Origin: Lingula anatina
Lineage: Eukaryota > Animalia > Brachiopoda
Length of the DNA stretch: 64,000 nucleotides
NCBI GenBank assembly: GCA_051362555.1
Contig: CM120647.1
Coordinates: 6,944,001 to 7,008,000 of the forward strand
Direction of reading: 5' to 3'
The notes under the pieces were generated by a model, which was not told the origin of the DNA, did no database searches, and saw only the letters and a program-made list of their open reading frames with translations. Each line of letters opens with the position of its first letter. The stretch's first letter is position 1. Below are positions 4,986-51,500 of the stretch, one piece after another. The translations under genes and the position numbers were made by a program.

Positions 4986-5081
4986 CCTTCTAAGTGTTGG
5001 GACACTCTGGACGGTCTTCTTTAACTTGAAAGTTGAACTGAAAATATAAGACTTAATATATATACATGTATATACACATAC

Positions 5082-6306: not shown

Positions 6307-9300
6307 TTAAAGTAACTTGAGACTTGATGGGGGGCCAACTTACCCCGGGGTCCAACTAGCCCCGGTCTCCCCAATTTATTGCCAAAAGAATATCGTTCTG
6401 TGCCTTCAAAAAGGGACGATAATTTCGTGCTGTTGGTGTACTCTACACACTATTGAACCTGGTTAAACGGAAGTCCGCAGACATGAATTGAGTGCTGATT
6501 CAACACTTATTAAACCATTTTTAGCTGGGGCAAAAGTGACGATGACCACCAATATGACACGATGAGGTGCTACAGGTACTTAGTGCATGTCATCCACAAC
6601 AATGAGAAAACTGGCAGTTGACTTAAATAAAGGCGGTTGTTTTATCATAGACATATAAAATGACATCCACTTGAAGCCCGTTTTAAAAAAAGGTAGTGGC
6701 CAAAGCTTAGGCTGCTAAAATTAGATATCCGACTATGCAGCCAAGTTTGTATTGGTCCTGGTTAAACCCCATTGCTCTGAGACTAATCAATCATAAAAAA
6801 CTTTAACACTGAACGACTATTGCTTTGACCTAAAGGGAATTAAAAAACCTACCTGGGTTAATAATCCGTGCCACCGGTATCATCTAGTGAGAAGTCAAAC
6901 GCTAAATGTGTCATAAATAATCTATTACACACATCATCATGCTGTGCATTATTTATCAATGTTTTTATATGAATTTGGAAGATGGCGTCGTTATGGTATG
7001 ATTTTGTTTTAATTGTCAATTAAATTTCTTCGATCAACAGCTAATACAGATGTTGTTTACCCGTAGTATTTCCTTGTCTGTCTTGAACATCTTAGACTGC
7101 ATGCGTTCCCATAACCTTATAGCACTAGCAGGATAATTCTATCTCAGCGGGGATTTTCACCGAAGCGCATTCAATGTAGTTGGCGGAATTATCTGGCACG
7201 ACCCTCCATCTCGCAAAGCAAAATGAACAACATCATGGACTACAAAGTCCCCCCCCTCCGACTTTACCCAAGTGCTTTAAGTTCCAAGGGGGAGTACCAG
7301 ACATTTAAACCGCTTAAACTGACTGCAATTAAGCGAGAATCCCCGAGGAGTTAGATCGATCCAGCTACTACGATAAGGTTATGGGAACGGTAAGTTAATC
7401 AGGGAATAAGGGACATAGAACAAAAGGAATGCAATGGAGGATGGGGGGGGGGGGGGGGCGAGGGGGGCTCCTGCCACCCCCTTCTGTTTCAGGAAAAAAA
7501 TCACACTTATATTCACCTCTTTAAATTACAATAATGACCAGATTAATTATAGTTGTAAACCGTAACAAATGGCACCGTTTGCCCCCCACAAACACCAAAA
7601 TTGGGGGGAGGGCCTGAAGCGAGGCCGTCATTTCTAAAAATATGCACCACCCCCTTCAAATAATCCAGGATCCACCCCTGTCATACCACCTGTACACCGC
7701 GATCAGCAGACAAAAATCTTCTCTGTTGGGTTATTTGCCAAATATGTTATCCTCAAAACTGGCATGGTCGCACCAGCTTTTACAAATTGGAACATTTTTT
7801 AATGATTCCCTCTTCTCAGGGGCTTGCATGCATAAACCAAAACCGTCCCGTCGTGGACTCTCTTCGATTACGTTGTGCTCTTTAACGCCATAGGTGAAGC
7901 CAAACTAAATCTCAACATAAAACAGTCATAATAATATATCTAGGAACGCTCCGTGTCGGCTTCTAAAACAGGGCCTCGGTTACATCATGAACTTAAACAT
8001 TGAAGATAAGACCACGTTCGGTGACTGGCACTGCGGGGGAAGGAATACGTAAGGTAGAAAGTTTCCGTTTCAGCTGAAGCCTGTGAACAAAGTTTCTGCG
8101 GCTCCGTGGTAACTCCGCTTTCTTGGACACAGCTACACACTTGTACGCGGGTTTGAATTCTAGAAAGTTCAACGTAATGATTTAGCTAAAAAGAGGTGGA
8201 AGGAGAGGTATGAGGGGGGGGGGGGGGGAGAGGGGGTCTGATAATCCTGGGATCCTCCGTAAGCTGCCTGTCCACTGTTGTAGGCATTTACTGGTTAATG
8301 TGACGAAAACGTTGATGTTTATGCATGTTTGATAGTTATTTATTCATCAACGCCCTAAAGAATGGTTACATAAAACTTTGCAAATCATAAAAAGAGATAA
8401 AACATGACGAAGTTCTTGACTAGTCTCTCTGATCATTATCCTGCTGCTACAGTTAATTATATACGACAGGCTTTAGACTTTTTAAGGCAGGGAGGGTAGC
8501 TGTTAAGGATTTTTTAAACTTATCTGTTTAAACAATGCAAATTTTAACGTGTCATATCACAGTGTATGAGATGATGGTTTCACATCAAAATACAAAGGGG
8601 TGGATTTGCCCACTGGAGCTGTTGAAGTAACGGAAATATAAAATCGATTCAACGCCTATTTTAAGAATAAAGATCACAGCAGTAGGTATTACAAATCGTT
8701 ATTGATAAGTTTCATGTGGAGATTAGATTAGATTTGATATTATTTGTAAAGACGCGAAAAAAGCCTATGTTTTAAAGATCATCGTTATTTTAAAAAGTAC
8801 ATAATTATAAACCAAGAAAACATAATACAATGACAAGTTAATAATTAGATATACCGTATCAAGCCAATATATATGTTATCAACAAGGAGGCAAACAACCT
8901 ACCCTCTGATAACAAAGGGATCTACGTATTTCAATGGCGGATTTATTTCAGGGGAGTCCTGACGCTCCACCCCACTTTAATTTCTAAAAATATCACACCA
9001 ATGGTCGACCCCCTCTTGAAATTATAATTTTGACTAGCTGAATCATAAAATACCAATTTTTTTTCACGCCAAAGGGGTAGGGGGGTAGAAGGGTAGGCTT
9101 CTCATCCGCGGACCCCCCCCCCCCCCCCCCCTTTAAATAATTCTGGATCCGTCCCTGGTATTTCATATTATACAAAATTAGAGTATCCTATTTAAAAACT
9201 TTTTAACAGACAACGAGCAGACCCTGTGGTCAGAGAGAACAAACGATCCAACTTACACAGGTATTTACATCAACTTATCCTTACACAGGTACACATATAT

Positions 9301-10078
9301 GACCTACTTAATACCGCGCATTTGATTGTATGCACTGTTAAAATAACAACATCAGTGAGGTCATTCTGGACCAAGTTACAATGTACTGGCAGTCAACCTC
9401 AACAACCAGGAAGTGATTTTGGACTGTTTACTGGTAGCAGTTGAAGCATTCGCTTAAAGCAGTATAAGGGTCTTTGGTATAGTCTTCCAGTCCCTCGGGT
9501 AAGTATTAATATAAATTATACTTGTATTAAAGTAATATTTGTTTCTCACTGCATAGTGCAGTCGTAAATTGCCTTTGAAGTAATTAATTATTTAAAATGA
9601 CGCCGAATACACCACCCCATTACTCAATATGATTAGCAATACTGGTACATTGTTTAACTTAATTCTAATGTTTGGGGGTATAGTAAACTGCTTTGATACC
9701 CGTAAATAGGGACTTTAATAATGACGTTGGTCTCCAGCTCGATAAACATACTTTTTTCTTTATACTTGAACATGTATGGATGGAGGTCGGATTATGGCGC
9801 CCTCTGTGTCTGTGCTAGAGCGTATTCAGAACAGATGATCCGCGGATCAAATATGGCAGTCCCTTTACGAAAGAAGAGCCATCTAACCCGCTGATGAGCT
9901 CCCCTTCTCCGCACGCGCCGTCCTTGCAGGGGTGTAGGAATCAAACATCGGAGCTGTGATTAAATGGCGCGAATTAGTCGGCTCTGATTTCTTGTAGGGA
10001 CCGATACGCGGGAACTGTAGAACCGAGGTGAATGCCCTCTTATATAAAGTTTTTTGTGTACGAGGATGTTCCTGTTAG

Positions 10079-10115
<37 letters not shown>

Positions 10116-10162
10116 ATGGCTTTCAATTTCAGGACCTATTATAAAGAATGTACCAGACGACA

Positions 10163-10360
10163 ATGAATTTCGTGACATTTCTATTCTTCTCTGCTGTATT
10201 CCATCTCTACGATATAGCCTTCACCTCCACAGTCGTCAGTTCTTTTCCAAGTGGACAGACAGCAGTAGAATTCAACAACATGGCGGTTGATAATGCCAAT
10301 GAGACTTTATTTATAGGAGCTGTTAATGTTCTTTACCAACTGGACGGTAGCTTACAGCTT
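10163..10360 (+). pseudogene. Truncated plexin/Sema-domain first coding exon
   Basis: Signal peptide MNFVTFLFFSAVF... then FNNMAVDNANETLFIGAVNVLYQLDGSLQ, matching the plexin Sema N-terminal pattern FNHL.VD...VYVGAVN.LYQL; tttcag acceptor at ~10133; similarity ends ~10360. Confidence 0.7.
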
Positions 10361-10749
10361 ATTTGTAGCATGCAGTCAAATAAACACAAATTTAGCAACA
10401 TGAATCGTATATCGCCTCGTCCCTGTACTTATATTTCGCATTATAAGGCTGGGGTATGGGCTCCTCAACTGACCCCATACCCACAGATTTTAGACCTATC
10501 TATCTGGAGAGTCTCACTAGATAAATGTCAGCTTAGCCGGCTAAATGTCTGTCCCGCCTACTAAAAGCTGTAAGGGGGTAATTAACTACCGTGCGCGCTC
10601 GGCGAACAGCAATTTAGCGTGAACCCCCAGGGAGTTAGGTCGATCTAGATGGATCGATCTAAATCTATGGGAATGCAGTCATAGAGAGCAATTTGAGAGT
10701 AGGCGTTTGTTTCTCTCGTTTTAGTATATCAAAATACATTCCTCCTTAC

Positions 10750-12431
10750 CCGTTGCGGCTCTTTCATGATTGGTGTACCCCAACTGACGACAAACAACCG
10801 CGGCGTCGTCGGTTCCCCATCCACTGTCACAAACACGCCTCCATACTCCGGCAAACTTGATCTCCACACGGCCGCTGTTGTAGCCGTTACCGTCCACCAG
10901 ACGAAGTTGACCATCGTCAGCTAGAAGGTTGAGGATAACAAAGGTTATGACAGTCAAGGTCAAGGGTGGTTCTGATTCTGATTCACAAGGAGAAGAGGTG
11001 ACTCCCACATTAAGCCTAGGTCCCAACTACGTTTAGGACGCACTGTTTTAAGATTCCTTGCGTCCGGCTAGGACGTAGCTAGATAACAGGGAAGAAATCA
11101 AGTAGTTGGTGAAAAGTTTCTACGTGCTGTTTGCGTCCCCCAAAAGTCGCACGATGAACGTGCACCTCACTCACGAACTCCCACGTTTTCCCCATTTTTT
11201 GGCCGTAGACCACACTTAGCAGCCCGTACGTTCGGTTGGGACTTAGGCTTTAGGAACAGATTGTGTGGGAAATATAGGAGGGTGGGATCTGCGGACCTGT
11301 GGACGTGTTCGTGAGTGTGGTGAGTATAGACAGTTAACATTTGGAGGGCGGTCGAGGAGGGCAGGTTAGTGTTTTTGGAAACTTTGTATCTGGGACTTTT
11401 GGACATATACAGGTATGTGCAGCCTAAAGAGGTTGAACAGTATTCAACTCATTTTATCAACTTATTACCCTGAAGCTACACTTTTTAGTACATGTAGGGT
11501 AATTGGTCTACCTGTATACTATTGTGCTGGAATATTCAGTTATACCAGCTATAATGAGGCAATGGTCCAGAAATCCAATAATGCTGATGATACTGATAGG
11601 ACTATGTCTAGGTGCCTCACCACCAGCACAAAACCAAATCCGCGGGGAATCTCGCTGAATGAAAGCAGATTAACAGCCTAAAGCCTCGGTCACAACCGGC
11701 CGTACAGGCTCTTACGGGCTGTTTGCGTCCAAATTTTGCGCAGAATCTCACCTCCCACGCAAGTCCTTCTTAAGCCTAGGTCCCAACTACGTTTTAGACG
11801 CACGGTTTTTAGGTTCCTAGCGTCCGTCTAGGACGTAGCTAGATCGCAGGGAAGGAATCAAGTAAAGCCTAGGGCTCAACCGAACGTACAGGCTGTTACG
11901 TCTGCTACGGCCAAAAAAAAAATGGGGAAAACGTGGGAGTTCGTGCACGTCCATCGTGCGACTTTTGGAGGACGCAAACAGCACGTAGAAACTTTTCGAC
12001 ATGATCAACAGCCATTTCATGCGATCTAGCTACGTCCTAGCCGGACGCAAGGAACCTAAAAACCGTGCGTCCAAAACGTAGTTGGGACCTAGGCTTTACG
12101 AAATGTCGAGTTCGCAGACAGCCCGTAAGCACGTAAGGAGGATGTTGGACACGTCCAAAAGATTCTACGAATAGCCTGTGAAAGATTGCTTAGGTACCGT
12201 TTTCTGCCATTTCACGTGTGCCTTTGTATGCAATATGGCGTTTACATCAGAGGCATATGATGCAATGTATGAAAGGTTGCAACTGACTGTGACGAAAAGA
12301 ACGGCGAAAAAGGTGGTGGAGATCCTTTACGACGACCTAAAAGCAGATGTTTTTCCATGGAGCCCCCAAAATTTGGAAAGTAAGGACATTCGTGACACTC
12401 TTACGAGTCCCGCTCCCCTAGAGTGCAGTGG

Positions 12432-20123: not shown

Positions 20124-20558
20124 AATACTTTTCATGCCCCTAAAATAAGGATTGAGTTAAATAAAAATCAGTCTGTCCAGTTTTGTCGATGAGTATTTTA
20201 TTTATTAATTTCCGAATAAACACTTAATTTACTTGTCGCAGTTCTTATTATCTCGATAATTTCGTTGTAATGTTGCAGCAATATTTTCTGTGAACTCTCA
20301 GAGGTCAATCATGACGTCTTTTCAAGTCCAAGTCGTATAATTATAACACAAAAATCGATATATAAAAAAAAAAAAACAACTGGATAAGCAACATCACATA
20401 TGTCATTTTTAATCAGTTACATGCTTCGGTTCAACGTGTTAAAGTGTTAAGTCACAAAAAATATCATGTTTTGCGTGGATACAATTTTGGCTTTAAGTAC
20501 GTAGCTTACATGAGGTCGAATGACACCGCCTTTGAAAATGGGTCATGGACTTCAATAT

Positions 20559-21185
20559 CAGGCCTACCCAACTACCAGACGCGGCACCTACGGATCCTGA
20601 ATAAACCGGTATATCACACCACACTGTCCGTTTTCAAGGTGTGTGTCAGATCGCATTACGGAGTATCATACCCCATCACAAATTGTGTAGGCCTTCCTGT
20701 CATCCGGGTATCGCGCCTCGTTCTCGTCAAGTAGGAGTCGTATGAATACAACAACATGGCGACAGGCGACTCCCTCAATCTCGTCCATCCCGCTAGCCAT
20801 GAAAATATTTAACCCCCGACAGAATATGCTTCCGCTATCAAAATTAGGTCTACTTTTCTAAATTAATATATAAGTTTGCAAGTTCTTATTTACAAAACAT
20901 CATTGGCTATGTTCGAACCTAAATTTTATGTTAAAAAATTGCGGTATTGTCAGATTTTTAGCATAAACAAGGAAAATTGCAGCAGCGCATGAATCTAGAT
21001 GAGATGCACTACTTGCCAACCCCGCTTAGGCTCATCGCTATCACATCGCGCGCCATGCAAAATGGGTGAAGTGGCTGATACTCTGTAATGCGATCTGACA
21101 CACACCTTGAAAACGGGTAGTGTGGTCTGATATACCGGTTTATTCAGGATCCGTAGGTGCCGCGTCTGGTAGTTGGGTAGGCCTG
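20559..21185. mobile_element. 627-bp non-autonomous DNA transposon with ~110-bp TIRs
   Basis: CAGGCCTACCCAACTACCAGACGCGG... at 20559-20668 inverted at 21076-21185 with few mismatches; flanked by AATAT on both sides. Confidence 0.85.
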
Positions 21186-21872
21186 AATATTATTGCATGA
21201 GATTTTGCACAAATAAACCATCTATTGTTTATCCAATGATGCCCAAAGGCAAGTGGTTTCTTCAAAGAATAACTACGAAAAGCGTTATAATCTTGAAATT
21301 CATTTATTTTATCTCAAATGAGTTATATTTCGGATATCTGTTAATTCCTATGCACGATGGTGGAAGTGACCGTCCTGTGCTAGTTACCCTAACTTATCCT
21401 TGCAAAATCGAGCCTCCAATATTCCTCGCAAACTGCGCTTTATTCACAGCCTCCCAAAGAGGTATTAAAATTTATGTCATTCGCATAATTAAGCCAATGC
21501 GCAACAGAGTATCTTCACAATTCCATTCGCAAGTGGACATTTTGGTTTTTCAATAGACCTCCCACCTCACTCTTTCAGCAATTTTGACCTATAATTCAGT
21601 GAAGTTTAGTTTACCTTTTGAGTTTCTCTAAAGTACGGTCAATAGTCTTTGAGAAGTATTCTTTACGTGACCCACATTATGCTCCGGTATTGTTCAGTGC
21701 GGTACAATATCAAAGCGAACAAGTGGCCATTTTGTTGCAAAGCGTGCTGATATCGGAGGTGTGTTCTCCATATATATCGATCGTTACGCTCCCTTACAAC
21801 GCAGCTTTAAAAAGGTGTCATGCGCAGATGCATGCCATCGAAAGGAGTAAGATTTACCTGGCTGAGGTGAAG

Positions 21873-24800
21873 ATGTGGCGATTGAACATCCAGTAGTAAT
21901 AAAAACCCGGCAGCCTTACTAAAAAAGTGGCAGAGCTATTAAAAAACGCCATAGTAAAGTGGCAGAGCTATTAAAAAATGTGACAGGGCAATTATTTTAT
22001 TTATTTGTTTGTTTATTTATGAAAAAGATGCTTATATTCGTTGAAATGGTAGGTGTATACATAAAATTTGAAAGGATATGCGTTTGTTTTAGTTTTTCAT
22101 TGAATTGGATGAACAAAAAGACGTGCATTCGTTATTATTGATCCAAAAAAGACAGATGGCATTGCACGCGACTTAGTTGAACGCACCTCACAAAGTGTAA
22201 ACAAACAATATTCCGCTTATGGTCAGCTGAGACTAGTGTAATATTCACAAAGAGAGGTATGCAGGCCAAATACTTAGAGTATTGTGATAGTGTGTGGTTC
22301 GCAAACACTTAGTACAGTAGACTGAATCTGCCTTTTACGGTATTTCAATATAGTTGAGTGTAAAGCGGCCAGTATTAAATGAATGACACTGTTTTAATCT
22401 AAGCCAGGTAGTATCGTAGTAAAGCTCTATTCCTTTCTCGTGAACCAACTGTTGTAGTCTTCTATTTGTACTTAAACGCCGCATCAAATACTTTTGAATT
22501 CTCTAAACCCCTCCAACCTTTTATTCCTAAATGATCGCCTTGGTTTACACAAGCAAATCAATAATGCAGGCGACCAGTGTAAACAATCTGTTTAGATTTG
22601 GGCCTTTTGTAGCCACAACTATCACTTCACAACATTTTTTCAATCCAAAGCTAAACATTGGAGTACTCTTCTCTTCCTTTTTTAAAATAATATAAGTATA
22701 TTTCTCTTTCAAGTCAAAATTTCTCAGCATTTTCCCGACGCAATGCTACTCATTGCTGTATTTTTTTTCTGACCATCTTTAATCATCACTTGTTCTTTAA
22801 AGTTAAACAGTGCAGCATTTTTTCTGTCCATCTTTGAACATAAGTGTTTTCCTTGTTAAATTTAAAGTTTAAATTTAAATACATCTTTAAAATTATTCTG
22901 CGTTAAAAGTATAATACCCATGCTTACGGCTATTCTGCCTTCTTCAGGGACAAAGATGTAACTTATGATTCTTATTTATAAGATCTATGCGCCGATTTAT
23001 GATTTGCATTGTCTAATCTGAAGAATAGGGTCATATGTAGAAGTATTTTTTCTCCTTAATATAAGAAACAACAGTTATTGCGTCTGTTTAAAGTTAAACA
23101 GTGCGGTATTTTTTCCTGTTTGACTGTGAAAATTAGTGTTTCCTTGTAAAAATGAAACACCAACATAATATGCAGAAGTATTTTTACCTTTAGTATAAGA
23201 ATCAGCAGATTTTTTTTTTTCTGATTCAAGTTCAACTTTTTTCTGTTCATCTTTGAAAATCAGAAAATGAACCGATGAAAATGTATCACAAGAGATTTTC
23301 TACACAAGATCGCGTTAAAACAGTGTAGTTTTTGTCTGCTTAGTCATGTTATAGAACCATAAATTCAAGAAAACACATGTCATATGGATGAAATGTACTT
23401 TTATTAGTATACAATCTCTAATCACACGGTGGTAAAAATGACAAACTCTGTCATTGTTTCATTGAACATCACATCTAATGCGTTAAATATTGTTTAGTAT
23501 TTGAATTGACTTTATATTATACAATTCTTATCAAGGTAGGTATTTACACAGGAGGAGTAATGTAATAAGCTTTTACGTCTTGCTTTTCAAACACGCCTCC
23601 TCTGCACAACATTATATTGGATTAACAGCTAGGCAAAATAAGTTTGTTAAGGTAGTGACAGGGGTGAATAATGTACAATCAAATGTCTAAAGGTTGTCTT
23701 CGAATAATGTGCAACAGAAATATGTTCTTCCTTAAAATTCTGTTAAATGAACAGCCAAAAATAAGTTTTTCCTTGTCAAGTGAAAAAATGTACACTTAAA
23801 CGTCTAAAGGTGCAGTGGACACACCGTCTTCTAAAACTTTACGTTTACAATAATAATAACTGAATGCATCTTTTTGCTGTACATATGAATACATGCTATT
23901 TTTTAACAACCTTATGCCTCTATTCTCACCACTTCCACTCTTTCTATTCAGCAGTACATCTAAATACTTAGTTTCATCTATGTCATTGTTGTTTCTATTA
24001 ACACCTTTACAGCTAAATTTCGGCTTTGTTTCTCCCCCAAAACAATAATATGTCTTACTACAAAGGCCAACGATACCGTCGCCAATCCACTCGGCTTTAA
24101 ATAACCCCGGCGTTCTTTTATCATAGGCCTCGTTTTCTGGTGTATCAGTGCGAGGAAACCAAATATGTTTTTCAGCTTCGTACTGCTTACGCATATCGGG
24201 TTTTATCACGGCTTCCAAGCTATCTGCCGAAAAAGCAATGTAGGCGGAATCTGTGTCCATTTCACAATATTGGAAGTCGGACGGATCCACGAACTTAAGC
24301 ATGAAATCATAATAAAATTCCAACATGCGCAGCTTGGCATACTGATACACCATGACCCCGATTTGAATGGGTAAATCGTATTTGATGACTTTTTTGTTTA
24401 GTTCGATCTCATACGTGTCGTCAGTGATTTGATCTAAGCGCCGAAAGCGGGGGTTGTTCACTTTACGAGAGGCCTTAGCTTCACCGCAATATTCCACATC
24501 ACGGTGTTTTTCTTTATTGGTTACTGTTTTACCGTACCCCGAATTACCAATGAGCTTCATGGTATCGGCTACGATGGCCTTTGTTTTATCTTTGTCCCCC
24601 TCTCTGCGAGCATCGCTCACCGCGTTACCAAAATGCTGGAAGCAGGCTTTGGGCGTGTACTCGACTACCTGGTAGATGTAAGAGACGCGAAGACCGTGCT
24701 TCACATACCATTTCAAGAGGGGAGTAGCCAATAAAATTTTTTCACCGAAAAAACTGCCTATAAGCGATTTTCTAGGAGCACTCATAATGCCGTTTTCTTC

Positions 24801-27800
24801 GGCAAAATTTTTCATGTAAGCACCTATGTCATCTCTGGTAATGGTGGCGTTTTTAAAAATGGGTGGCATTTCTGCAAACATGGGTTTGAGTTCAGAGGGG
24901 ACTTCTATATCACATTCAATAAAACCAAACAACTTGTCGTTGCAAACGGCATGCAAAATTTCTGCAAATTTCAGTTGATGTTTGTTTTCAGTGGGGTGCT
25001 TGTACTGATTTACGAACAGTTGCACTTCTGCATTTTCTTTCTGTAATTTTTTCCACTCACACTCCCACATTTCAACCAAATTGTACCCTTGTTCTCGAAT
25101 GTACTGACTATTTTGATCTGTTTGGATACGCAGTGATTCCATGGATACTTTTTTCGTTTCGTTTATTTCTCTAAATGTGCCGTCCTTGTTTTGGTTTAGA
25201 TGACAACGGTGGCCATGAAAATAACACCCTTGGTACTGATACACGGTGTTTGTCTCAGAGCAAAAACCATCAACAGGTAGTCGGGGTTGGTAGCCTATGC
25301 GTTTTTCAATGTTGTTAAACTGATGCCGGATTTTCTGCCCAGTGTTGTGAGCGATCCAGTCCAACCACATCGTTGCTTCCCTCCCATGGGGATGGGAATA
25401 TTCGCGTTTATACCCTGATTCTACATGCCTGCGTATAAATGTACCCGTTGGCATGGGTTGCATCAAGCACCACAAGTAAAGAGCATTGGCATCGAAGCCA
25501 ATTATTTTCTTGCAGAGCTTGGGATCATCTACAGTGGCTTTTCTAATAAAAGTTTTGTTTCTTTCGTGGTAACGGTGAAATATAATACTTGGGCCGCCCA
25601 CGATGGCATTTTTCAGGAGGTAGTGGAGATCGCTATTTTTGTCATCAAAAAGAGTAAAATAAGCGTCTCCTACGTTTTGAAAGAGGTATTTCAGTGTTAA
25701 CCCTGGTACACTAATACCATCTTTAAACATATCAATTCCCCTCTCAAGGTAGAAGTCAAACATTTTAGCAACTGCTTCCAGCATAGGTTCAACATCTTTG
25801 TTGTTATACCAGGTGAGAAAGTCGCGCATTGTTTCCATATTGTTTTCCTCCCACACCCGTTGGCACAATGCGTAATCCTCCTCACTTATGGTGTTTTGCT
25901 TTAATTGTGAGGCAAATGCTTCACGTGGAGGGAGACAAGGGTAGTCGAGTTTATCCAAGGAGTCCATCCATTCATAGGGAAAGAACCCCTTAGATTCTTT
26001 GCACTCGAATGCTTTGAGAAACTGACTGTAACTGCACCCAGGTGCTAAATAATTTCTGACATCTAAGATTTTCAAACTATCTGACTTGAGCACCATAAAA
26101 TTGTTGTTCCGCTTGACTACAAAGCGCAACTTTTCTCTGTTTATCAACGACGGAAAAAACAATGTTTTCATGGCATTCAAATCGTAATGCCCACTATTGA
26201 ACCCTAATACTGGTAATTCCTTTAAATAGTTGCTAAACCTAGATAACAGTTTTGTTAAATAATGGCCCTTTCTAAGTTCATTAACATCCTCTTCTTCCTC
26301 ACTCATTTCTATGTCTAATTCTATATCATTCGTGACTTTCGTGTAACCATTTTCAAACACCCACTTAAATTTATCATTCAGTATTACCTTAGCCTCCTGA
26401 CTAACTTCAATGAGGGCAGCAATAAATTTACCCACAGTTTGGCCAGGATCACCGTCCGATATGAAGCACTTGGGCGTGGTGTGTCCTGGCACATTGCTAC
26501 AAATACTTACACTCAGGAACTGGTGCTCATGCTCCAAGTGAAGTTTTTCACTGTGTTCGGGGTTGTTTGCTGCCGGTAGCAGGCACTCGATATCAAAGGT
26601 TGCCCGATAGGGGTAATATCTATCTTCCTTAGGGATAGCCAGACCGTAATCCGCCAGCTCCTCAAAAATGGTTGGGGGTGTACTGTATGCTTTACCTGGG
26701 AAGCGGTGTTCGACGATAGCTTCACATGTCCGTTCGTGACGATGAAGGTCACCTTTATGCTTGAACATTTTGTTGCACTTTGAGCAACAAAAGGACTGGG
26801 TGTATTTCCCCATGTCTTTTATGTACGAAAAGTGATTTTCGTACACATTAAGCGACATGGTTTCCTTATACTTGCTCATTGATCGACGCACAAGTTCAGC
26901 AAAAGTCGCACCGTCTTCTGTTTCCTGCAACTCGTACACCGTTATGTTGACTTCGAACAAGTCTTCAAGTTTTTTTAGTTGTTTGAGCGACACACCATTA
27001 AACCCTTTGATCTTGCACCGCGTCTCGGCTCTGTATTTCTCAAAAAGATGTTTGGTGGTTTTTTCTAGTCCAAGCACTGGCCACCCTCTGTGCAAGGCAA
27101 GGCATCTGAACATGCACAAATTGTCTTTATAACAACCATTCTGATCTCCCTGCAATGCGACCAGACCCTTGTTATTTGTGATATAAGACGGTAAAAAGCC
27201 ACCACTGCCGATCGGATGACCCACGAGCTTGGTCACGTAGAATGTAGCATTAGTAACCATCTCGACTATCCAGCTGGAGTTGGGTCTCTCCTGCCGGGCG
27301 CACTCCAAAATATCCCTGACAGTAATGTGCTCAAAGAAACCATTGAGGTCGTCTTTGTTTTGGATTACAAACGGCTCTTCTAGGAAGCAATGGTTGTTGC
27401 TACTGGGGTGATAGTAACGCAGTTCCCCGGTCTCGTTGTTTCTTAAGAAAAATCCGTAAGACACATTCAACTTAAAAACAGTCTTTTGGTCTTTTAAAAC
27501 GGCAGCTAACCCTTCTCGAAGATCGTCAGGGTGAATAGTGGTCAACCGAAAGTTGTACCAGTCTTGCAATTTGTTTCCCCTAGAGAAGCGAGTGCGGATG
27601 GAGTTCCAGTGCTGCATGTAGGCGTCGCGTACACGAGGTTCAGTATCAGGAGGAAGAAGACCTTCGGGGATGCTGACTGGGTCAGGGGAAAGGATATTTG
27701 CAGCGCCATACCCCATTTGTAGTTTTTTATGAACGATGCTGGAATGAGAATCTGCTTTTCTTTTGTTCGAGGGCCCTGGTTGCGGATGAGCTTCAGCCTG

Positions 27801-30800
27801 GTGGTTTAGCCGGTCCTTTGGGGTGGCAAATACTTCGGCACACTCGGGGCATCTTAAGGTCGGTTGTTCTAGTCTGGTCGAGTGTAAGCGCATGTGAGTG
27901 CTCAACACATCACGTCGACCAAAGCATTTTCCGCACATTGGACAACCGTACGCCTTAGTGTGTGAGGCCCGGTGACGCTTCAGGCTTTCCGAGCGATTGA
28001 ACGACGCTCCACAGATATCACAGGGATATTGCTCAGCGCCGTGCACCGCCCTGATATGTTTAAGTAGATTACGCTTCTTGGTGAAAGATTTCTTGCAGGT
28101 TTCACACTTGTGCTCCATGGTTGCTGCAATGAACATATAACTTGTTATACATACCAGATATAGAACTATGCACTCAAATATGATTGGCTAATGCAAAAAT
28201 AAATGATCTATATGTTGCAATGAGCAATCCTATTGGTTGATTGTGACATCATATCTAAAAATAGATTTATTTGTGAGGCATTTGATTGGTTGAAATAATA
28301 TGATACTGCAATTTGATTAATTATGACATCATATCTAAAAATAGATGTGCTTGTGAACATTTGGTTGAAATAATATACTTCTGCAAAATGTCACTCATTC
28401 TAAGGTTTCATGATTGATTGTAATAAGACGATACTGCAATTTGATTGGTTGTTTAAAAACAGATGTTTTCTGATTGGTTACTGAAAAGAGTATTAAAACA
28501 AACGTTTTAGTTACATCAGACAGTTAAAGAATGGATGACAGTGAAGTGTTCACCGATTGTGCACCTGAAGACAAGCCCTTGTTTTTTGAAGTGCCTTATT
28601 GTAGGGAAGAAGATAGAATTCTGAGTTTTCTCAATTGGCCTGGCAAATTATTAATCAATCCTATACCTTTAGCCATCAGTGGGTTTTACAGGGACCCAAA
28701 TGCCCGAAATACAAACGACGCGGTCCTTTGTTTTAATTGTCGGGTCAGTCTTAGCAACTGGGACCCATTGAGGGATGCGGCTGACATTGAGCATGAACGT
28801 CACAGTCCACAGTGTACTATGAATACAGTAGAAAAAAGATTGAAGAATCCACTAAATGTTTCACTGACGCCCGAAAATAGACACGAATTGGTACAGTTGT
28901 TTGTCGCACATGAAAAGAAACCAAACTACACGCCCAATACAGTGAAAACACTTTTAAACATAGGCTTTGATGAAGTAGACGGAAACCCTGTAACACCATT
29001 TCAAAAGACATACACTCTATTTTAAAAATGCAGTGTTCGAACAGGTGAGCTTCATTTACGCAAAACAGTTGAAATAGGAAGGATGAAAAGAAGACACACT
29101 GATAAAAAGAACCGTAGAAGTAAGGGACACGCGGGAGAAGACCCAGGAAAACTCTATCATAACCCTGCTAGTCTAGAAAACACGATAAAACTGAGCCATG
29201 ATGCACACAAAATTAAAAAGAAAACTACACGTACACGAAAAAAGTTATTGTCCAAACGAGGTGCACAAACAAGGCAGCGATTTCAAGCTGACGATAAATG
29301 GCAAGCGGGTGATCACAACATGGCAAAATATAATTGCTTGTCAGCATTGCTTGATATATTTTCAACATACGCATGGGCCGTTGATATAATCGAAAAGAGC
29401 AGATCATTGAAAAGAGTGCACCCGAAGATAAATAGACCATTACCCCTCAATCAAATGCTGAGACAGAATTTACAAATAGGAAATTTCAATCACACCTTAA
29501 ACAGCAAGGGATAGCTTGAAGTCTGAAAGAAGTTGAGAACTAAAGGCCACGTTATTGACTAAGAATTAACACTACGAATATGACCCAGGCTTCAACCAAG
29601 AAAACAAGTAATAAAAAGAGAATTCGAATTTAGTTTAATTCGAAAAACCGATAGGGTATTTAGTTTGTGTGACTACCAGAAATATATTAACTTATATCGC
29701 AAAACCAAGTTTAAAAATGTATAAGTATCTGCAACTATTTAGTTCAACCCGAAAAAGCGATAGGGTATTTATAGTTTGTGTGACCACCATAACTAATATC
29801 ACGAAGTCGAGTTTTGAAAAAATATGCAATCAACACAATGTGTATCTTGCTTGGGCTCAAAGGTGTTTTGTATAACTGCATCGCTTCACCACCGTGTAAA
29901 TAACACGTCGTACGGGTATGCCACATTATATTTTAAAGTGTTAAAACGGGCCCAAATATCAACAGAAATGTAAAATGCAGTTTCGATAGCATGACTAAAT
30001 AAAATAGATATAAAATTATATAATGAGTTTTGTAAAATATAAAAACTGATTGTGGTTTCAAATGTTTAATTTTGACAACAAAACAAATGTAAAATGATCT
30101 TAACAGATCAAAACATAAAAATCTCCATGGTAAAAAAACTTAAGCGAGCTTCATTGTACATGAACAGAATTTTAAGTGTCCGTGGAAAAATATTTTTAAA
30201 AGGTTAAAGATTAACAGCAGAGTTGAAAATAAATCCTAACAATCGTTATGACCAGTAAGCATTCTTACATAAGTTGCTTATCTTATTTTAACTTATAACT
30301 GTTGTTGAAACAAAACTTAAACTCTTACGTTTTATGTTTGAACGTTTTTCATTTCAACTGTAATTTTAGTCCCCTTCTAAATTATTAACTAAGAACAATA
30401 TGAGGTATAAGTTTTTACTTAATTTTAAGTTTCTTTTAACGCTGTACATGTTCAGGTTATAATTTATAATCAACTATTATTCCACACATTGCCTGGAAAA
30501 AATGCTAGTTATAGAAATTAAACATACATTGATTTTCTATTCCTTGCTATAATAAAAAAGAACCTACCTTGTATCAGAACTTAAATATTAATCGAATAAT
30601 TGGTCCTTCCTCTACTGCCTGTGCGTCTTGTACTGTTCGCAGCTGTAGTATGCTGTATGGATAAGCCCTGTCCCAGCTATATAACGAGCTATATACACAC
30701 GTCTGGGCTTGTTTCTTCAAATTTAGCAAGCTTGCCCAAGCATGTTCCCGTTTATTCAAATGAAATCAGCTGTTCAACAAACAAATGACCGGTCAGATGA

Positions 30801-33800
30801 AATAAGCCTGGTTTCAGCTATATAGCGTTCAAGATCATGACCAGGCATGTTCTGTTTGCTCAAGCAATACACACAAATACTCCTTTGGCCATTCAGCGTT
30901 ATTCAAAGTGTTGCTATTGTAGCACATATAAACGCGTAACGATGGTATTGTCTCCTACTATAGTTGCTACGCGAGGTAGAGATTACAATACATTCCACTT
31001 ATTCATGTCATTCTTTACTTAATCCCTCCGCATTCTCCAGTCCCTCCCTGAATATCAATTACCAGCATTACCAACATTTTCTGGGACCAACTTACGAGTT
31101 CTATATCTATTTACTGCTTGTGATTTTATTTTTCTGCAACTAGATTTAATTTATAGGATTTATTAAGAATTTATTGTATCTTACACACCAGTACGTACTG
31201 GTGAAAATGTACTTAGGAATATAACTATAATTCGGTATGGAATCATAAGATTAAACATTACAGGTTATTAAAACTCAACTTGTTAACTACTTGATAATTA
31301 CAAGATTTCACATTGAACTGCAACATGACATCTATAGCTGAGCACGATCTTAACATAAACTCTATATTACATTGTGACAACTATACAAATTAGGGTGCTA
31401 GATGGGAGAAGCCATCCTTTTGTCATAAACTTTTTCGATAAAGTGTTTACTGAAGAATTTCACAGACTAATTGAAAGTTTTGTGAAGTACAGCTCAATCT
31501 TGTGTAGAAATTAAAAAGTTATAAGTTTAGATCACATAAACCTACACAAACCCTCCTATAGTGACAGTTAAATCATCTGAAAATATTATCAGACAATCTC
31601 CATTTACAACCCAATGATCAATCCATAGATAGTTTAACTCATTAATTTCACACACTTTATGTTTAGGAAACGTATTTGCACAAAGTTTATTGTATTCTTG
31701 GTTAATGTGATTAGTTTAAGTTAGAACAGAGGTTTGCTCACAACGGTAAAATGGTGATAATAAATTGCTATACGACATATTAAATGTTAGATGTGACTGA
31801 GATTTTTATCTAAAAGCAATAACTTCTGAGCACGGATACATAAAATATGTACACTTATTTTATCGCGCTGTTAATCCAACAGAACGGTGTGTAACAGACG
31901 CATGTTTGCAGATCATAACAACTTACAAGCTCGACGGGAAAGCTTATTACATAACTCTACTTGTGTTATACCTACCTTGGCAAGCTTTCGCTCTTTACTT
32001 AAAGTCAATCCTGCTCAACAGTTAGCGCATTAGATGTGATGGTCAATGTAACAGAGAGTTTGTCAATTACCACCGTGTGCACAGAAATGAAGAATACTAA
32101 TAAATGTACATTTTATCCATATGACATGTGTTTTCTTGAATTTATGGTTCTATAACATGACTAAGCAGACAAAAACTACACTGTTTTAACGCGATCTTGT
32201 GTAGAAAATCTCTTGTGGTACATTTTCATCGGTTCATTTTCTGGTAATTGAATTTCAAAGATGAACAGAAAAAAGTTGAACTTGAATCAGAAAAAAAATC
32301 TGCTGATTCTTATACTAAAGGTAAAAATACTTCTGCATATTATGTTGGTGTTTCATTTTTACAAGGAAACACTAATTTTCACAGTCAAACAGGAAAAAAT
32401 ACCGCACTGTTTAACTTTAAACAGACGCAATAACTGTTGTTTCTTATATTAAGGAGAAAAAATACTTCTACATATGACCCTATTCTTCAGATTAGACAAT
32501 GCAAATCATAAATCGGCGCATAGATCTTATAAATAAGAATCATAAGTTACATCTTTGTCCCTGAAGAAGGCAGAATAGCCGTAAGCATGGGTATTATACT
32601 TTTAACGCAGAATAATTTTAAAGATGTATTTAAATTTAAACTTTAAATTTAACAAGGAAAACACTTATGTTCAAAGATGGACAGAAAAAATGCTGCACTG
32701 TTTAACTTTAAAGAACAAGTGATGATTAAAGATGGTCAGAAAAAAAATACAGCAATGAGCAGCATTGCGTCGGGAAAATGCTGAGAAATTTTGACTTGAA
32801 AGAGAAATATACTTATATTATTTTAAAAAAGGAAGAGAAGAGTACTCCAATGTTTAGCTTTGGATTGAAAAAATGTTGTGAAGTGATAGTTGTGGCTACA
32901 AAAGGCCCGAATCTAAACAGATTGTTTACACTGGTCGCCTGCATTATTGATTTGCTTGTGTAAACCAAGGCGATCATTTAGGAATAAAAGGTTGGAGGGG
33001 TTTAGAGAATTCAAAAGTATTTGATGCGGCGTTTAAGTACAAATAGAAGACTACAACAGTTGGTTCACGAGAAAGGAATAGAGCTTTACTACGATACTAC
33101 CTGGCTTAGATTAAAACAGTGTCATTCATTTAATACTGGCCGCTTTACATTCAACTATATTGAAATAACGTAAAAGGCAGATTCAATCTACTGTACTAAG
33201 TGTTTGCGAACCACACACTATCACAATACTCTAAGTATTTGGCCTGCATACCTCTCTTTGTGAATATTACACTAGTCTCAGCTGACCATAAGCGGAATTT
33301 TGTTTGTTTACACTTTGTGAGGTGCGTTCAACTAAGTCGCGTGCAATGCCATCTGTCTTTTTTGGATCAATAATAACGAATGCACGTCTTTTTGTTCATC
33401 CAATTCAATGAAAAACTAAAACAAACGCATATCCTTTCAAATTTTATGTATACACCTACCATTTCAACGAATATAAGCATCTTTTTCATAAATAAACAAA
33501 CAAACAAATAAAATAATTGCCCTGTCACATTTTTTAATAGCTCTGCCACTTTACTATGGCGTTTTTTAATAGCTCTGCCACTTTTTTAGTAAGGCTGCCG
33601 GGTTTTTATTACTACTACATCCTAATTTTGTTGGCCATTTCATGGATTCCCGTGGACATTCAAGGTCAAAGTAAGTACATATTATTAATCTTAAATAAGA
33701 CTATATCTGAATCACAGAGGCTGATGATAAAACTAGTGCATGCAACTTTTTGTTTGCAACTTGAAGTACTCTGTAGGCATAAAAAGTTGGAGAGTATGGT

Positions 33801-42500: not shown

Positions 42501-45500
42501 ATTGAGTGATTTATTCATGTCGACTTTACTTGAGTCGCATAAGAAACTAGTAGAAGTGGTTTATATGTATTTTAATTAAAATTAAAATGAAAAAAAAGGG
42601 AATTCACGCTCCATCGATGCTCGGTTCATATGTACCTTTAAAATAAATATAACATTAAATGCTCGATTTGAGCGGTGCTTGTTAATGCTTTCAGACGGCG
42701 ACGGTGCCTTGCGTCTTATTAACACATCAAATGCGTACGAAGGTCGCTTGGAAATCTTCTATTCCGGGAGATGGGGGAGAGTTTGTGACTACGGCTGGGA
42801 CCTGACTAGCGCTGACGTGGCGTGTAAACAGCTTGGTTTTACTGGGGCCCACACACCATTATTTAGTATGTCACCTAGGGGGACAAGTGAGTATAAAAAT
42901 TGTACACCTTAAGTGGATACTTTAATCGTACGTATTTCGATAGCCTTTTATTGTTTAAAACCGTGATTTTAAAAGTGTAGGCATCGTAATGAATACTTAA
43001 CATGTACTGTTTACAATTATTGACTGTTGCCTTACGTTAACGTGGCGTTTTGTAGACTGAAGCCGAAGTTAATTCTTTTTGTGAATCTTTCTTTTCAAAC
43101 ACCAGGTCATTTCTGGATACAAGAGGTGAATTGTCAGGGATCTGAGTCGACCCTGGCAGATTGCCATAATGACGGCGTTGGTGTTATCAGCTCATCTTAT
43201 TGTTCCCAGTCTTCGTCACATGACGCCGGCGTTCTGTGTAAAGGACGTGAGTATATACCAAAGGTGGATCCAGAGAAATTGCACTTTAAGACCAAAACAG
43301 GCCCACTAGTGTTAGTACAAGTGTTGATTATAATATTCATGAGCATTGAACGTTCAAATACCGGCAGCGATTTATTCAATGCTGTTCTCACTGGTTGTTT
43401 TTGTCGTTTTGCATTACTTACAGCCAATGACGGAGAAGTGAGATTGATCGGCGACTCACAGTATCATGGGCGAATTGAGATATTCTACGCAGGAGACTGG
43501 GGAAGAGTGTGTAGATATCGATGGTCACTGAATGACGCCAAAGTGGCCTGTAGACAGCTGGGCTTCAGTGGGGCGCTGAATTACTGGACAGGTTGGACAC
43601 CTAAAGGGACTTCGCGGGTGGTGTTAGGTAAATTGTTTCTAGGTCTGTCGGTCTTTCTGACTTAATGGTGCCAGGTACTGTTTGCCTGAATGCGTGACTT
43701 CCGTCTGAGTAGTGCCAAGTTCTGTTTGTGGCGGTGTCCAGCAACACAGAGCCCTATCATTCTTGGGTCCGCCGGACCCGGTGTTTTGAATGTAAATCGG
43801 TGTTCTGAAATGTAAAGTCCCACTATAGACACTCTATTTCAGTACGGAAAGTCCTAGGACCCTACATTTTAACACTAAAAGTCCGCATTGAAGAGCAATA
43901 ATGAAATCTCACACTTAAAACATGCAATTTAAAAACAACATTGAACATGATGTTGACTGATACAGAGGGAAGAATTACAAGGTAAAATAAACATTATTAA
44001 CCTCTCTTAAAGTGTAACGCGTAGTATAAATGTGCATTTTTCGCATTTCATAAACTTTAATTTGCAGTTTTATCTTTTGTATGCATTTGAGAAAGAACAT
44101 AACTAAAGAAATATAAACCTATTCAGAATATCTAAGTGCCTTTGGTGAACTTCCTAATTTTACAAAAAAGTTTATTTTATTAATCAGTATAGTTATTGTC
44201 TTTTCTCCTCAATGTCATTTTCTCTTTGCCATGCATTTCTTGTAACAATGCAGTTTTCTTATCTTCTCTTTCTACTTCTTTCCTCCATCTCCCCTCCTCC
44301 CTCTCTTCCTTCCCACTCTCTACTCCAACTATCTTTCTTACAGCTCTGTAATATAAGCAGCCGCTTTCAAGCTAAAACAGGAATGTAAATATGTACCTTA
44401 AATGCACATGTAAGTTGCGCTTTTATCAAACAGTATTGAAGTTAAACGAGTATAAATGTATAAGACTTACTTTAAAATGTTATGCGGAGCTTCTCCTTAT
44501 TGCTCTTTCCTGATTGTTGGATGTTCGTCTTCTGTACCTGCCATGTTGTAAATAAAGTCGCACTGCTTGAAAACCCATGCTGACAGAGTAAGACATCGCG
44601 AAGAGCTAGCCATTTTATACCCTGAGAAACATGGGATGCATTCCTTTTGGGTTGATTCCTTTTCCATTTAGGGAATGCAACTTAAATTAAAACTTTATAT
44701 AATTTGTCAAACAAAATTAAATGAGTACATTTTCAATTACGCTCCGTAAGCATGTATATTCAATAACTAATTAATTTCGTCAGTTTCCAGAAAATACATA
44801 TTTTGTACAATTTGGCATTGATGCACTGTATAACGCTAGCTGTCACACATTTATGAGTGGTAGTCATGGTAGACTAAGTCACGCATATAGTCTAAGGAAA
44901 AGAAACGTTTTGCACAGTTTAGCATCGATTCATTGTGAACCACTAGCTTTCACACGTGCGAGTGGTATTAAAATAAGTCACGCGTATATATAGTCCAAAG
45001 CATCACAATGAAATGGGATATGTGAAATATATTTTAAATAAGTCCAATTAAAAAAAGGTATGAAATGTAATCGAAAATGAGTATAACCCATTTTATTGCG
45101 TAATGAAACACAATAAATGGACAGTAGGTGGAATATTTGCCTATAAATCTACGGACCACTGGTTTCTGAAATAACGGGTCCCGGACTTTCTGTCATGTGG
45201 GGACCTTCTGGTACATGTACATGACACCGGTTTTCCCGAGTAAGTGACGCTAAATACTGTTTGTTACTCTTCCTGATTTTCTATTAGCACCCTACAGGTC
45301 TGTTTTGTTCTTTTCGCTTTCATTTTCCTGAAGAGGTATCCGAACGAACATGTGACCCAGACTTTCGGCGGTCAAGCGCTGCATTTGAAGGGGAGGTGCA
45401 GCCATTAGATGCCGAAAACGAAAAATTTCTCTCTAATTCTCGAAACGTTTAAATGAGATGCCTTTTGTTTGTTGCATTTTACGGGGCTTAGCAAGCACAA

Positions 45501-48597: not shown

Positions 48598-51500
48598 AAT
48601 GTAAATTTCCTCCATCAAATGTGCACCTCATGCACAATAACATACTCTCCCTGTACTAAGAGTGCCTCTCACTGCATTTTATGTTACTATTAGCTTTGCT
48701 CATGGCACTTCCATGTTTTAGTGTATGTAATGACGGTCCGGAGGGCATCGTTGGTTAAATTCAATGTGTTTTTGTATGAGCAAAAAATACGCCCTACTGA
48801 ATCACTTTTTCCAGAACTATCGCCGATATGGGGGATGGGTGCACATGTATCAGCCAATAGAGACAAAACCTTTCGAATAAAATGTAATTATGTCACTGGA
48901 TTATTATTATTAGTTTTGGGTATGGGGGTTGGATGACATGTCTCTTTTTCTGTCAGAATATGAAGAATACTAGGCCTACACAAGAAGTTACAACTTCTTG
49001 GCCTACACGATTGATATCTCAATTCTTCTAATAATAATAACTGATAGGCCTATCATTTCCAAGTAAAGGATTCCTTCAAACATGGATTCCCCAGAATTTC
49101 CTCAGTGTAAGCTATTCTAACAGGTAATTCTATTGGTCAATGCACAGGCTAAACATAGCTCAACACATAAGAGAAATCCTAGAGTTGAGAAAATTCTTGG
49201 CTTAGGAAATTCTTAAGGTACTTTGTGCATGCCACTTAAGGGGTTTCCTCTGTTAAGAATTTTCTTATGAAGTTAAGGAGAATTGTTCACTTAAGATAAG
49301 GATTGTTTGTGCATACGGGGCCAGATACCTAATTATATATATCCTTGGTGATGGGAGGTTCACTTACCTACATTGTTAAGTATTGACCCTTCATGGTGGA
49401 CGTCTTAATAACAAAAAATGCATTCGTGCATGGCTATTAAAACGGATTATACTAGCGGCAAATATAGCTGCTAGGGGGTAATTATCTTTACCCCTAGCTG
49501 ATGCGATAGGCGTGACAGACATTTAAGCTGGCCAAGTAGATATCAATTTAGTGAGACTCCCCAAGGAGTTAGATCGATCCAAATATCTGTGGGAATGGTC
49601 CCTTAGTTTAAAAGATAAATACCAAATACATTGAAGTTCCCCATTGTCACTCAACACAGGCTGCATAAAGCTTTTTATTGCCCCAACCTTTCTAGCTGAC
49701 GATGGTCAACTTCGTCTGGTGGACGGTAACGGCTACAACAGCGGTCGTGTGGAGATCAAGTTTGCCGGACTGTGGAGGCGTGTTTGTAAATTTGGATGGG
49801 GAAGCAAAGACGCCGCAGTTGTGTGTCGACAGTTGGGCTATAGCGGATACGTTAATGTTGCAAGAGGTAAGGCAAGTGAGAATAAATTAAAGAAATAGAA
49901 ATACATGTACATTAAAAGCAAGATAAATGTCCTGTAACGTAAACATTATAAGTAGCAGGATTTTACACAGCACAAATAGAATATTTACCCGTAAATAAAA
50001 TAATCAAGTCATTATAATTCGAAATTGATCTAACAGGCAGTAGAAAAAAGTCTTTCAGAGGCTCTCTCATATTGGCTTTTTTATGCGATCTGCGCAGATT
50101 TTGCGCATGATTTTTCTTTTATTTTGGCGATAACAGCAAATGATAAAAAATATAACAAGCAATAAAATATTTCATTCATCCTTTTATGAAATTTTTATGA
50201 AATCTTTATTGTAATTTTGGTCGAAGCGCTACAGTTGCGTATCAATAAAAACTCGGTCTTTTACGACGTAACGTACCCACTTGCGACCTTTATCACAAAT
50301 GCCGTGATGAAGTTAACAATTTACAGCTGTGAGGTGATCATTTGTAAATAAAAGTATATGATATGGGGGGGGGGGGGGCAACTTTTTTGACCAATGTTGT
50401 ATGTTCTTGAACAATATGGCCTGTTAACAGTGCGATTTCCAACCCTTCTGCAAAGATGGCATAGGTGGGCATCCATCTAGCATAAGTGGACATTTGGGGT
50501 TGCGTTGTTCGTGTTGTTTCCCGTTATCATGAACATGATTATATTACATTGATTACTTTTTAATTGGCAATCTCAAAAAAGATTGCCTTTTTTGTGTCCA
50601 AAATTGTGTTTTTTCAGGTTGGATCCCCAGGGGGAGTGGGGAATTTTGGCTGGACAATGTTGCCTGTGTTGGAACAGAGAGTAACCTTACAGATTGCTCA
50701 CACAGAGGGATAGGGGTATACAGCATCTCATTGTGTGACCTAAGCAGTAACGCTGACGCTGGAGTTTACTGTCAAGGATACTTACGTACGTATGTCTTTC
50801 TCACTGCCAATAAGAAAGTCAGAGACTATCTGTCTGTTTTAGAAACAATTTTTTCTGTAGGTCTGTATGTCTGTGCCGCTTTCCTTTCTTTTTTTCCTTT
50901 TTTATTTTTTTTTAAATTTTTATTTAGTTTGTATTTTTTGAGAGTACGAGGATTCTTTTATTGGCAAAAACATATTCGTGATGAATTATTCGCAAAAACA
51001 TATTCGTGATGAAATAGGGGATTGATGACGCGCGACACCTGATTTTGGCTTAAAATTTAGCTTCACTTTGCAGACATAACGTAGACCTAATAAATGGGGG
51101 CAATAATCTAGGTATCGGCATGTTTCAGCATTTTAGTTCTATTGGACGGAAGTGATCATGAATATTTCGAAATGGGCGTTAAGAGGCTGTAATGCGTTGT
51201 GAAAGGTGCGATATTTAAATTTGTATCACAACTTTATATCACAACTAATCATTGAAATATAAAATCCATTTTCTCTACCAGCGGGTGTAACTCCCCCCAG
51301 TACAACCACCACAACGACCACCGTTGTAGTAAGTAGTATTAATTGATTTCACTCAGCCTACGCAGGTATATACCGGTGTGCTGTTTGGACATTTCAGCAC
51401 ATTTACTTTGTTTGCCAGAAAATAGTCATATTGTATATAAAAAAACAATAGCTTATGTTAAAAAGGACTTTTAATAAAACTTTATCATTAACGTAATCAA

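Follow-up and report, generated by a model that had tools for sequence, protein, structure and literature searches.

In a 64,000-nucleotide stretch of the genome of the brachiopod Lingula anatina (assembly GCA_051362555.1, contig CM120647.1, positions 6,944,001 to 7,008,000 of the forward strand), referred to below as the window, we identified a Maverick-derived element of 11,725 bp at 21892-33616. The element carries an intact gene for a protein-primed DNA polymerase (pPolB) and an intact gene for a protein of the inhibitor-of-apoptosis (IAP) kind with a single BIR domain, next to an integrase that survives as a relic. We lean slightly towards the view that it is a recent insertion of a low-copy Maverick-derived family, in which the element's own polymerase would replicate the DNA and the integrase of a related Maverick would integrate it. 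The original prediction had proposed such a semi-autonomous lineage rather than a one-off deletion.

The element begins with AGTAGT at 21892 and ends with the complement of AGTAGT up to 33616, and thus has ends of the (AGT)2 type described for Mavericks, or Polintons (PMC8097293). A perfect 6-bp target-site duplication (TSD), ACATCC, flanks both ends; we rejected a chance match, for which the odds are 1 in ~4,000. Aligned over ~1,520 nt, the two arms of the terminal inverted repeats (TIRs) show 10 substitutions, a difference of 0.7%, and two indels of 3 and 7 nt; the first 1,318 nt contain 7 mismatches. An inner extension is more diverged, and with it the BLASTN alignment covers ~1,750 nt at 94%. 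The predicted AGTAGT termini, near-identical TIRs of about 1.5 kb and perfect TSD were thus confirmed. An assembly artefact was also rejected: the element contains no N, the arms differ at 10 sites, and all bins are covered by independent samples.

The polymerase open reading frame (ORF) runs on the minus strand from the ATG at 28118 to the stop at 23796 and encodes 1,440 amino acids, with exonuclease motifs I-III and polymerase motifs A-C intact, in agreement with the 4.3-kb intact ORF that had been predicted. Pfam named only zinc fingers, in four C2H2 stretches at the start, and left the core unnamed. The protein was 42-58% identical to the 120 homologues listed, many of them carrying PF03175; homologues accounted for 1,286 of the 7,315 candidates, and the nearest named polymerases were Branchiostoma proteins (50-53% over the whole length). 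It matched 218 of the 226 columns that are invariant in 21 homologues, a count towards the bottom of the range that the homologues themselves show. A structural model of residues 125-1320, based on a 68-row alignment, reached a mean predicted local distance difference test (pLDDT) score of 84.8, with phi29 polymerase as its best PDB match (E 6e-8) and adintovirus PolB as its best match among viral models (E 3e-31). The element thus carries a pPolB of the Maverick/Polinton type. A search of viral contigs with the single protein returned no relative, and one with the alignment returned one distant locus.

Two further parts of this protein deserve mention. A segment of 115-127 residues in the model matches restriction-endonuclease-like viral proteins, and its nuclease-like motifs are conserved across the polymerase homologues generally; VSR inserts have been described in marine Polinton polymerases (PMC10748475), suggesting that this insert is of the VSR kind. 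The phage collection gave one short match to it. The N-terminal region also folds confidently in the model and contains a candidate Cys335, conserved in 21 of 21 homologues, and His429, conserved in 20 of 21. We regard it as the putative site of two domains joined to the polymerase, a terminal protein and a vOTU domain, which are named after PMC11161782 and not by a structure match.

Judged from its sequence, the element holds only a relic of the intact retroviral-type integrase found in an autonomous Maverick. Natural Maverick integrases matched 29074-29513 in 11 cases out of 150 (E<0.01, best 1.7e-6), as two collinear pieces in two frames, compared with 0-1 of the 150 in each of 20 shuffles. 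This set of 150 was gathered starting from L003 (positions 879-12406), a seemingly complete Maverick in the same polymerase clade, found on a metagenome contig, with all genes on one strand and a gene set of ATPase, integrase and protease (named by Pfam) plus two presumed capsid genes. Pfam was blind to the relic, the integrase of L003 as a lone probe left it undetected, and a profile of the 150 sequences scored its pieces at E 0.02 and 1, inside the shuffle range (best 9.1 bits). The identification therefore rests on the tblastn count and on collinearity, which bear out the heavily decayed integrase of the original prediction. One frame over the relic, 29026-29514, is open for 162 codons and continues from the BIR stop in the same frame.

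The damage is extensive. The relic has several internal deletions and a frame change between ~29400 and ~29440. Its first piece retains 4 of the 8 columns conserved in >=80% of the 150 integrases (intact median 8), its second piece retains 1 of 6 (intact median 6), and ~24 of 112 well-occupied integrase columns are missing. Both core motifs have lost their acidic positions, and neither the C-terminal half nor the chromodomain was found in the element. About 560 bases downstream, 30076-30204 is a weak integrase-like stretch (profile E 2.3, not significant) whose positions follow those of the relic and which may be a displaced piece of it. Because these columns have been lost in an element whose TIRs are 0.7% apart and whose TSD is perfect, the integrase decay is old beside a young insertion. 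The predicted combination of a long-dead integrase, a young insertion and an undamaged polymerase gene was thus upheld by the relic columns, the TIR difference and the polymerase columns.

We then compared the element with sequencing runs of the same species. Of the 21 runs listed, ten contain 23-59% of the sampled words; the ten come from four studies of a single organism. The comparison took in four DNA runs (X1, X3, X4 and X8) at 85% likeness and, at 92%, two DNA and two RNA runs, six runs in all. Contigs of the DNA runs are a few hundred bases long, and copies were inferred from contig depth. All 30 bins of the element were covered in four of four DNA runs at 85% and in two of two at 92%, and the polymerase, the BIR gene, the relic and the AT-rich arm are thus all represented in DNA from four studies. 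Because summed depth is not copy number, we compared single contigs. Those of the AT-rich arm had depths of 505 and 500 against 150 for the flank in X1, 379 against 85 in X3, and 60 against 20 in X4, so that element contigs stood at 3-4.5 times flank depth in three runs, with flank contigs being single-copy. Record 15 of X3, which differs from the window over 29113-29528 by 6 substitutions and 23 gap letters, showed that a second near-identical copy carries the same broken relic. In each of the four samples the genome therefore holds several copies a few percent apart, as contig depth and the second relic show for the reduced form, though contigs do not link its parts on one molecule; the single copy that would have spoken against a family did not appear. 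In the listed pieces, divergence from the window was 62/2,536 (2.4%) for the polymerase and 135/4,113 (3.3%) for the AT-rich arm, and contig depths in the two parts agree, as they should for one sister subfamily. One X3 contig joins 25308 to 33228 with 10 letters between, a loss of 7.9 kb that corresponds to a ~3.8-kb derivative without most of the polymerase.

The insertion site itself looks recent and polymorphic. The element interrupts a small dispersed host repeat, of which three intact copies lie elsewhere in the window. In these three, 12 bases stand in the place of the two TSD copies of the filled site; the target copy thus seems to be 6 bases shorter than its kin, having lost these at or before insertion. 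No empty allele was seen in the contigs of the DNA runs. In X3, X4 and X8, single-copy contigs part from the window at 21770, where the interrupted repeat starts, and this site is therefore probably absent from these haplotypes. The X1 flank piece stops at 21723 and is uninformative here.

Differences between the window and its copies bear on selection. Among the 40 best-supported differences listed (367 more lie beyond these), 33 are in the polymerase: 24 synonymous, 9 non-synonymous and mostly conservative, and no stops. With an expected synonymous share of 0.20-0.26, the ratio of non-synonymous to synonymous differences per site (pN/pS) is 0.10-0.13; at 85% likeness, the 15 listed differences divide into 9 synonymous and 6 non-synonymous. 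As judged from this selected subset of sites, purifying selection has acted while the polymerase of the window and those of the commoner sister copies diverged. The span covered by this selection is far shorter than the time of integrase decay.

All four DNA runs also contain contigs whose fit is limited to 31-37 letters of the best-conserved relic blocks and which then continue into unlike sequence. Their depths are 484 in X1, 736, 170 and 123 in X3, 276, 140 and 118 in X4, and 229 in X8. In X1 and X8, such a contig also touches the BIR gene upstream, in the same order. These contigs belong to other, higher-copy families with the same gene order, and they are separate from the sister subfamily because their depth is well above it in X3 and X4. 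These more distant relatives, which have only the conserved integrase core in common with the element, are candidate helpers.

The intact BIR ORF of the original prediction was also found; we set its start at 28531, giving 164 amino acids with the zinc ligands retained. Its sole hit among 11 candidates was Lingula anatina protein P0122 (82% identity); it matched BIR clusters in the protein atlas and had no match in the phage collection. Its single-sequence fold gave no usable model (pLDDT 34). A host IAP gene trapped by chance was rejected, as the gene is intronless and collinear with the integrase core in related contigs. The polymerase and BIR genes point away from each other on either side of a shared spacer of 29% GC, which has five same-strand ATTGG (CCAAT-box) words against 0.9 expected (p ~0.003) and would act as a bidirectional promoter. 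The spacer contains an 80-base repeat, and in each of the four DNA runs the contigs near 28243 are several times deeper than those elsewhere in the element, so that the motif is common to many more genomic sequences.

Between the relic and the right TIR lies the predicted stretch of about 2.5 kb without long ORFs, which we verified at 33% GC with stop-free runs of at most 78 codons. Pfam gave nothing under E 0.05 on 55 short frames from 29026-32200 and the TIRs. On the minus strand, ~30500-31030 is a stop-interrupted frame with a 141-base repeat, possibly the relic of a decayed accessory gene; it had no Pfam or atlas match, and 30577-30765 had no usable atlas hit. Rfam had no match to the element, and the only tandem repeat was a 6-mer. 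Virion genes were sought with probes from L003 and a second locus, L001. No credible match to a major or minor capsid, ATPase or protease gene was found in the element outside the polymerase, the best being low-complexity (E 0.016). In control searches, genes of L003, L001, L006 and L010 matched each other at E 1e-74 to 1e-6; capsid probes detected each other across families at E 1e-74, and the cross-family controls for ATPase and protease reached E 1e-13 and 1e-15. The capsid identity of the L003 and L001 probe genes is inferred from size, position and order, and the Pfam names of the ATPase and protease probes are below or near the cut-off. The capsid, ATPase and adenain-type protease of an autonomous Maverick thus appear to be absent, relics beyond recognition aside, and the recognisable virion-gene relics that would have counted against the original prediction did not emerge.

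Outside the element, 20555-21188 has 111-base inverted ends, and single-copy contigs of X4 and X8 run across the place without it; it is a polymorphic insertion resembling a miniature inverted-repeat transposable element. Host exons at 1892-5102 (minus strand), and at 43024-43665 and 50539-51009 (plus strand), presumably encode glycosyltransferase and scavenger-receptor cysteine-rich domains, an assumption of ours from resemblance by eye.

Table 1 Features of the Maverick-derived element and its insertion site, in window coordinates.
Feature	Position	Strand	Evidence or remark
Dispersed host repeat (~230 bp) split by the insertion	21770..33740		
Left TSD copy, ACATCC	21886..21891		
Left TIR, beginning AGTAGT	21892..23410	+	Diverged inner extension to ~23643
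Intact protein-primed polymerase ORF (pPolB)	23796..28118	-	Homologue, motif and model evidence
Divergent intergenic region, predicted bidirectional promoter	28119..28530		5 ATTGG words
Intact single-BIR (IAP-like) gene, 164 amino acids	28531..29025	+	Pfam BIR, E 2.7e-12
Integrase relic, ~residues 1-160 of ~370	29074..29519	+	tblastn count, collinearity
AT-rich arm without long ORFs, with short direct repeats	29520..32093		33% GC
Right TIR	32094..33616	-	
Right TSD copy, ACATCC	33617..33622		

Under the reading that we slightly favour, the element would be excised or released, and protein-primed synthesis starting at its AGT-repeat ends would then copy it. As a part of the polymerase chain, an arrangement described in PMC11161782, the terminal protein would work best at its own origin, which would keep the polymerase under selection. 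An integrase would need only the short end motif and could be supplied in trans by a higher-copy relative, leaving the 6-bp TSD, and the element's own integrase would thus be free to decay. The BIR protein might protect the host cell from apoptosis during replication, which is the weakest step. Borrowing of a capsid is speculative, and this mechanism would not need it. More tentatively still, and with rather less than even confidence, we propose that the element represents a long-lived animal Maverick lineage that persists as a bare replicon, with a selected polymerase, IAP cargo, no virion genes and an integrase whose death long predates the divergence of the copies; other Maverick families would integrate it in trans.

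Several observations weigh against the trans-integrated family. Contigs are too short to place a polymerase under selection and a dead integrase on one molecule. Median depth is higher on the polymerase than on the relic (791 against 358 in X1, 2.2-fold, and 361 against 280 in X3, 1.3-fold), and distant relatives contribute part of the depth on the relic, so that near-identical polymerases may in some cases belong to elements of a different architecture. At 30767, contigs of X1 and X3 match the window on their right side and carry other sequence on their left (at least 255 letters in X3), and the commoner sister copies may accordingly be longer than the window element. No loose end was found at the termini among the 12 listed of 153, hence no differing insertion sites were seen, and depth at the element ends shows no excess from the distant relatives, hence no sign of shared ends. 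The 33 polymerase sites are the best-supported rows of ~400 and do not amount to a full dN/dS (substitution-rate ratio) analysis. RNA reads numbered only 15 and 23 in runs of 1.8 and 1.3 Gb, with none on the BIR gene or the relic in these thin data. The polymerase share of depth was 79% and 91% in RNA against 40-60% in DNA, and 64-75% of the RNA reads are oriented as sense RNA if the library is stranded, a weak hint of polymerase transcription. The two RNA runs showed no splice joints, with too few reads to exclude spliced genes.

Some of these points would also be expected if a longer sister Maverick, 93-97% alike, were the selected and active element and the window held an ordinary non-autonomous derivative or a mosaic. 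The polymerase and TIRs would then have been taken recently from the sister and the older, dead integrase segment acquired by recombination; the polymerase would be intact through youth, and the whole element would have moved in trans. We consider this rather unlikely, though it would account for the unread sequence left of 30767 in sister-type contigs and for the 1.3-2.2-fold excess of polymerase over relic depth. It would likewise fit the fall of X1 depth at 92% to 120 (29574-29916) and 81 (30946-31288), the 7.9-kb deletion derivative, which indicates that deletion products are made and kept, and the recombination of Polinton modules reported in PMC10748475. However, the middle and the right arm stand at mutually similar depth in four runs at 85% likeness, and the AT-rich and polymerase pieces match in depth and divergence. 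The contigs with only an integrase core lie far above sister-subfamily depth in X3 and X4 and hence are not that subfamily, and no well-supported insertion or joint at the relic deletion points was among those listed. A longer sister may still lie behind the sequence left of 30767.

It is improbable, in our estimate, that the integrase frame was repurposed, such that a short, basic, catalytically inactive protein of ~144 amino acids is still made, or that integration proceeds through another activity such as the nuclease-like polymerase insert. The open frame over the relic, with four integrase-like blocks kept in one frame across several deletions, would agree with such a protein, as would a simulation in which an open 120-codon frame survived 20-30% neutral change in 3-7% of trials; the segment of the polymerase model resembling restriction endonucleases would agree with the second form. 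Against them, between 29113 and 29528 a close copy comes out 23 bases shorter, no read of the thin RNA data fell on the relic, and a weak search of longer proteins with the relic frame returned no homologue. Moreover, the nuclease-like motifs are general to polymerase homologues, and a 6-bp TSD is the known mark of the Maverick integrase (PMC8097293). Most doubtful of all is a one-off event, in which one full-length Maverick fell into decay at this locus, or segmental duplication produced the extra copies. Most Maverick loci are indeed fossils (96% in vertebrates; PMC8097293), and differing insertion sites were not directly seen. Decay in place is nevertheless incompatible with a TIR difference of 0.7% and an intact 4.3-kb gene beside an integrase minus half its conserved columns, and the 3-4.5-fold depth over single-copy flanks and the lack of the site in three samples also contradict a one-off. 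The semi-autonomous lineage of the original prediction is therefore supported in part, by the multi-copy right arm in four samples, the second broken relic, the mostly synonymous polymerase differences, the integrase-core relatives and the recent, polymorphic look of the site; differing TSDs, a helper with the same ends, free linear replication and capsid borrowing would be its hypothetical parts.

Compared with the Mavericks/Polintons (adintoviruses) of marine invertebrates, the element is alike in its pPolB, AGT-repeat ends, long TIRs, 6-bp TSD, rve-type integrase ancestry and IAP cargo, and differs in lacking major and minor capsid, ATPase and protease genes and in its broken integrase. At 11.7 kb, it is shorter than the intact vertebrate Mavericks of 12.7-24.6 kb, and its TIRs of ~1.5 kb are at or above the top of the vertebrate range of 46-1,447 bp (PMC8097293; further background on size, TSD and cargo in PMC6431247 and 10.1101/2022.07.12.499685). 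IAP homologues have been reported in adintoviruses, and such cargo is not unusual for the group (PMC8502044). With intact ends and no mobility enzyme, the element has the marks of a non-autonomous Maverick family; it works as a non-autonomous Maverick with its own replicase and fails as an autonomous one. Capsid-less and non-autonomous Polintons are already known, as is IAP cargo. The letter N in Polinton names denotes non-autonomous Repbase families. In Table S1 of PMC4028283, 9 of 72 Polintons are without capsid, ATPase and protease, including Polinton-1N1_DR (15,469 bp), Polinton-2N1_DR (11,092 bp) and Polinton-1_GI (11,954 bp); they resemble our element in size and in the concerted absence of virion genes, and the table gives no polymerase or integrase state. 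Ca_PLV1 is similar as integrated polinton-type DNA without detectable integrase, for which integration in trans was proposed (PMC11296320), but polinton-like viruses (PLVs) of its type are reported to encode divergent capsid proteins, unlike the element. In C. elegans, 10 loci with pPolB and TIRs and no integrase were treated as remnants or partial copies (10.1101/2024.01.15.575659). Neither Ca_PLV1 nor these loci are described as a multi-copy family with polymerase selection. Insect polintons without polB are also reported (10.1101/2025.02.07.637071). Our literature search found no description of a multi-copy family in which the polymerase is under selection and the integrase dead; one may exist in Repbase or in subscription papers, which lay outside the search.

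Mavericks are defined by a polymerase and an integrase, and a family whose polymerase stays selected after integrase loss would reveal which functions can be borrowed and which cannot. To our knowledge, no Maverick life cycle has been reconstituted so far. If the bare-replicon lineage is real, it would form a class missed by design in surveys that require polymerase-integrase linkage: large surveys count only integrase-linked polymerases (PMC10748475), and Maverick loci are otherwise classed as defective (PMC8097293). If the longer sister is the active element, ours would be an ordinary deletion family.

The element also invites comparison with the cytoplasmic linear plasmids of fungi (pGKL type) and with transpovirons, which it resembles as a pPolB replicon with inverted ends and a lost virion module. 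Cytoplasmic linear plasmids carry genes for independent cytoplasmic transcription, whereas none were found in the element, which is chromosomal, has a TSD and is known here from integrated sequence alone. Both kinds of replicon are reported to derive from polintons or PLVs (PMC11161782). A trans-integrated family would thus offer an animal parallel to the polinton origin proposed there for the linear plasmids, and in a bare-replicon lineage the passage from polinton to linear plasmid would have a living intermediate on a chromosome.

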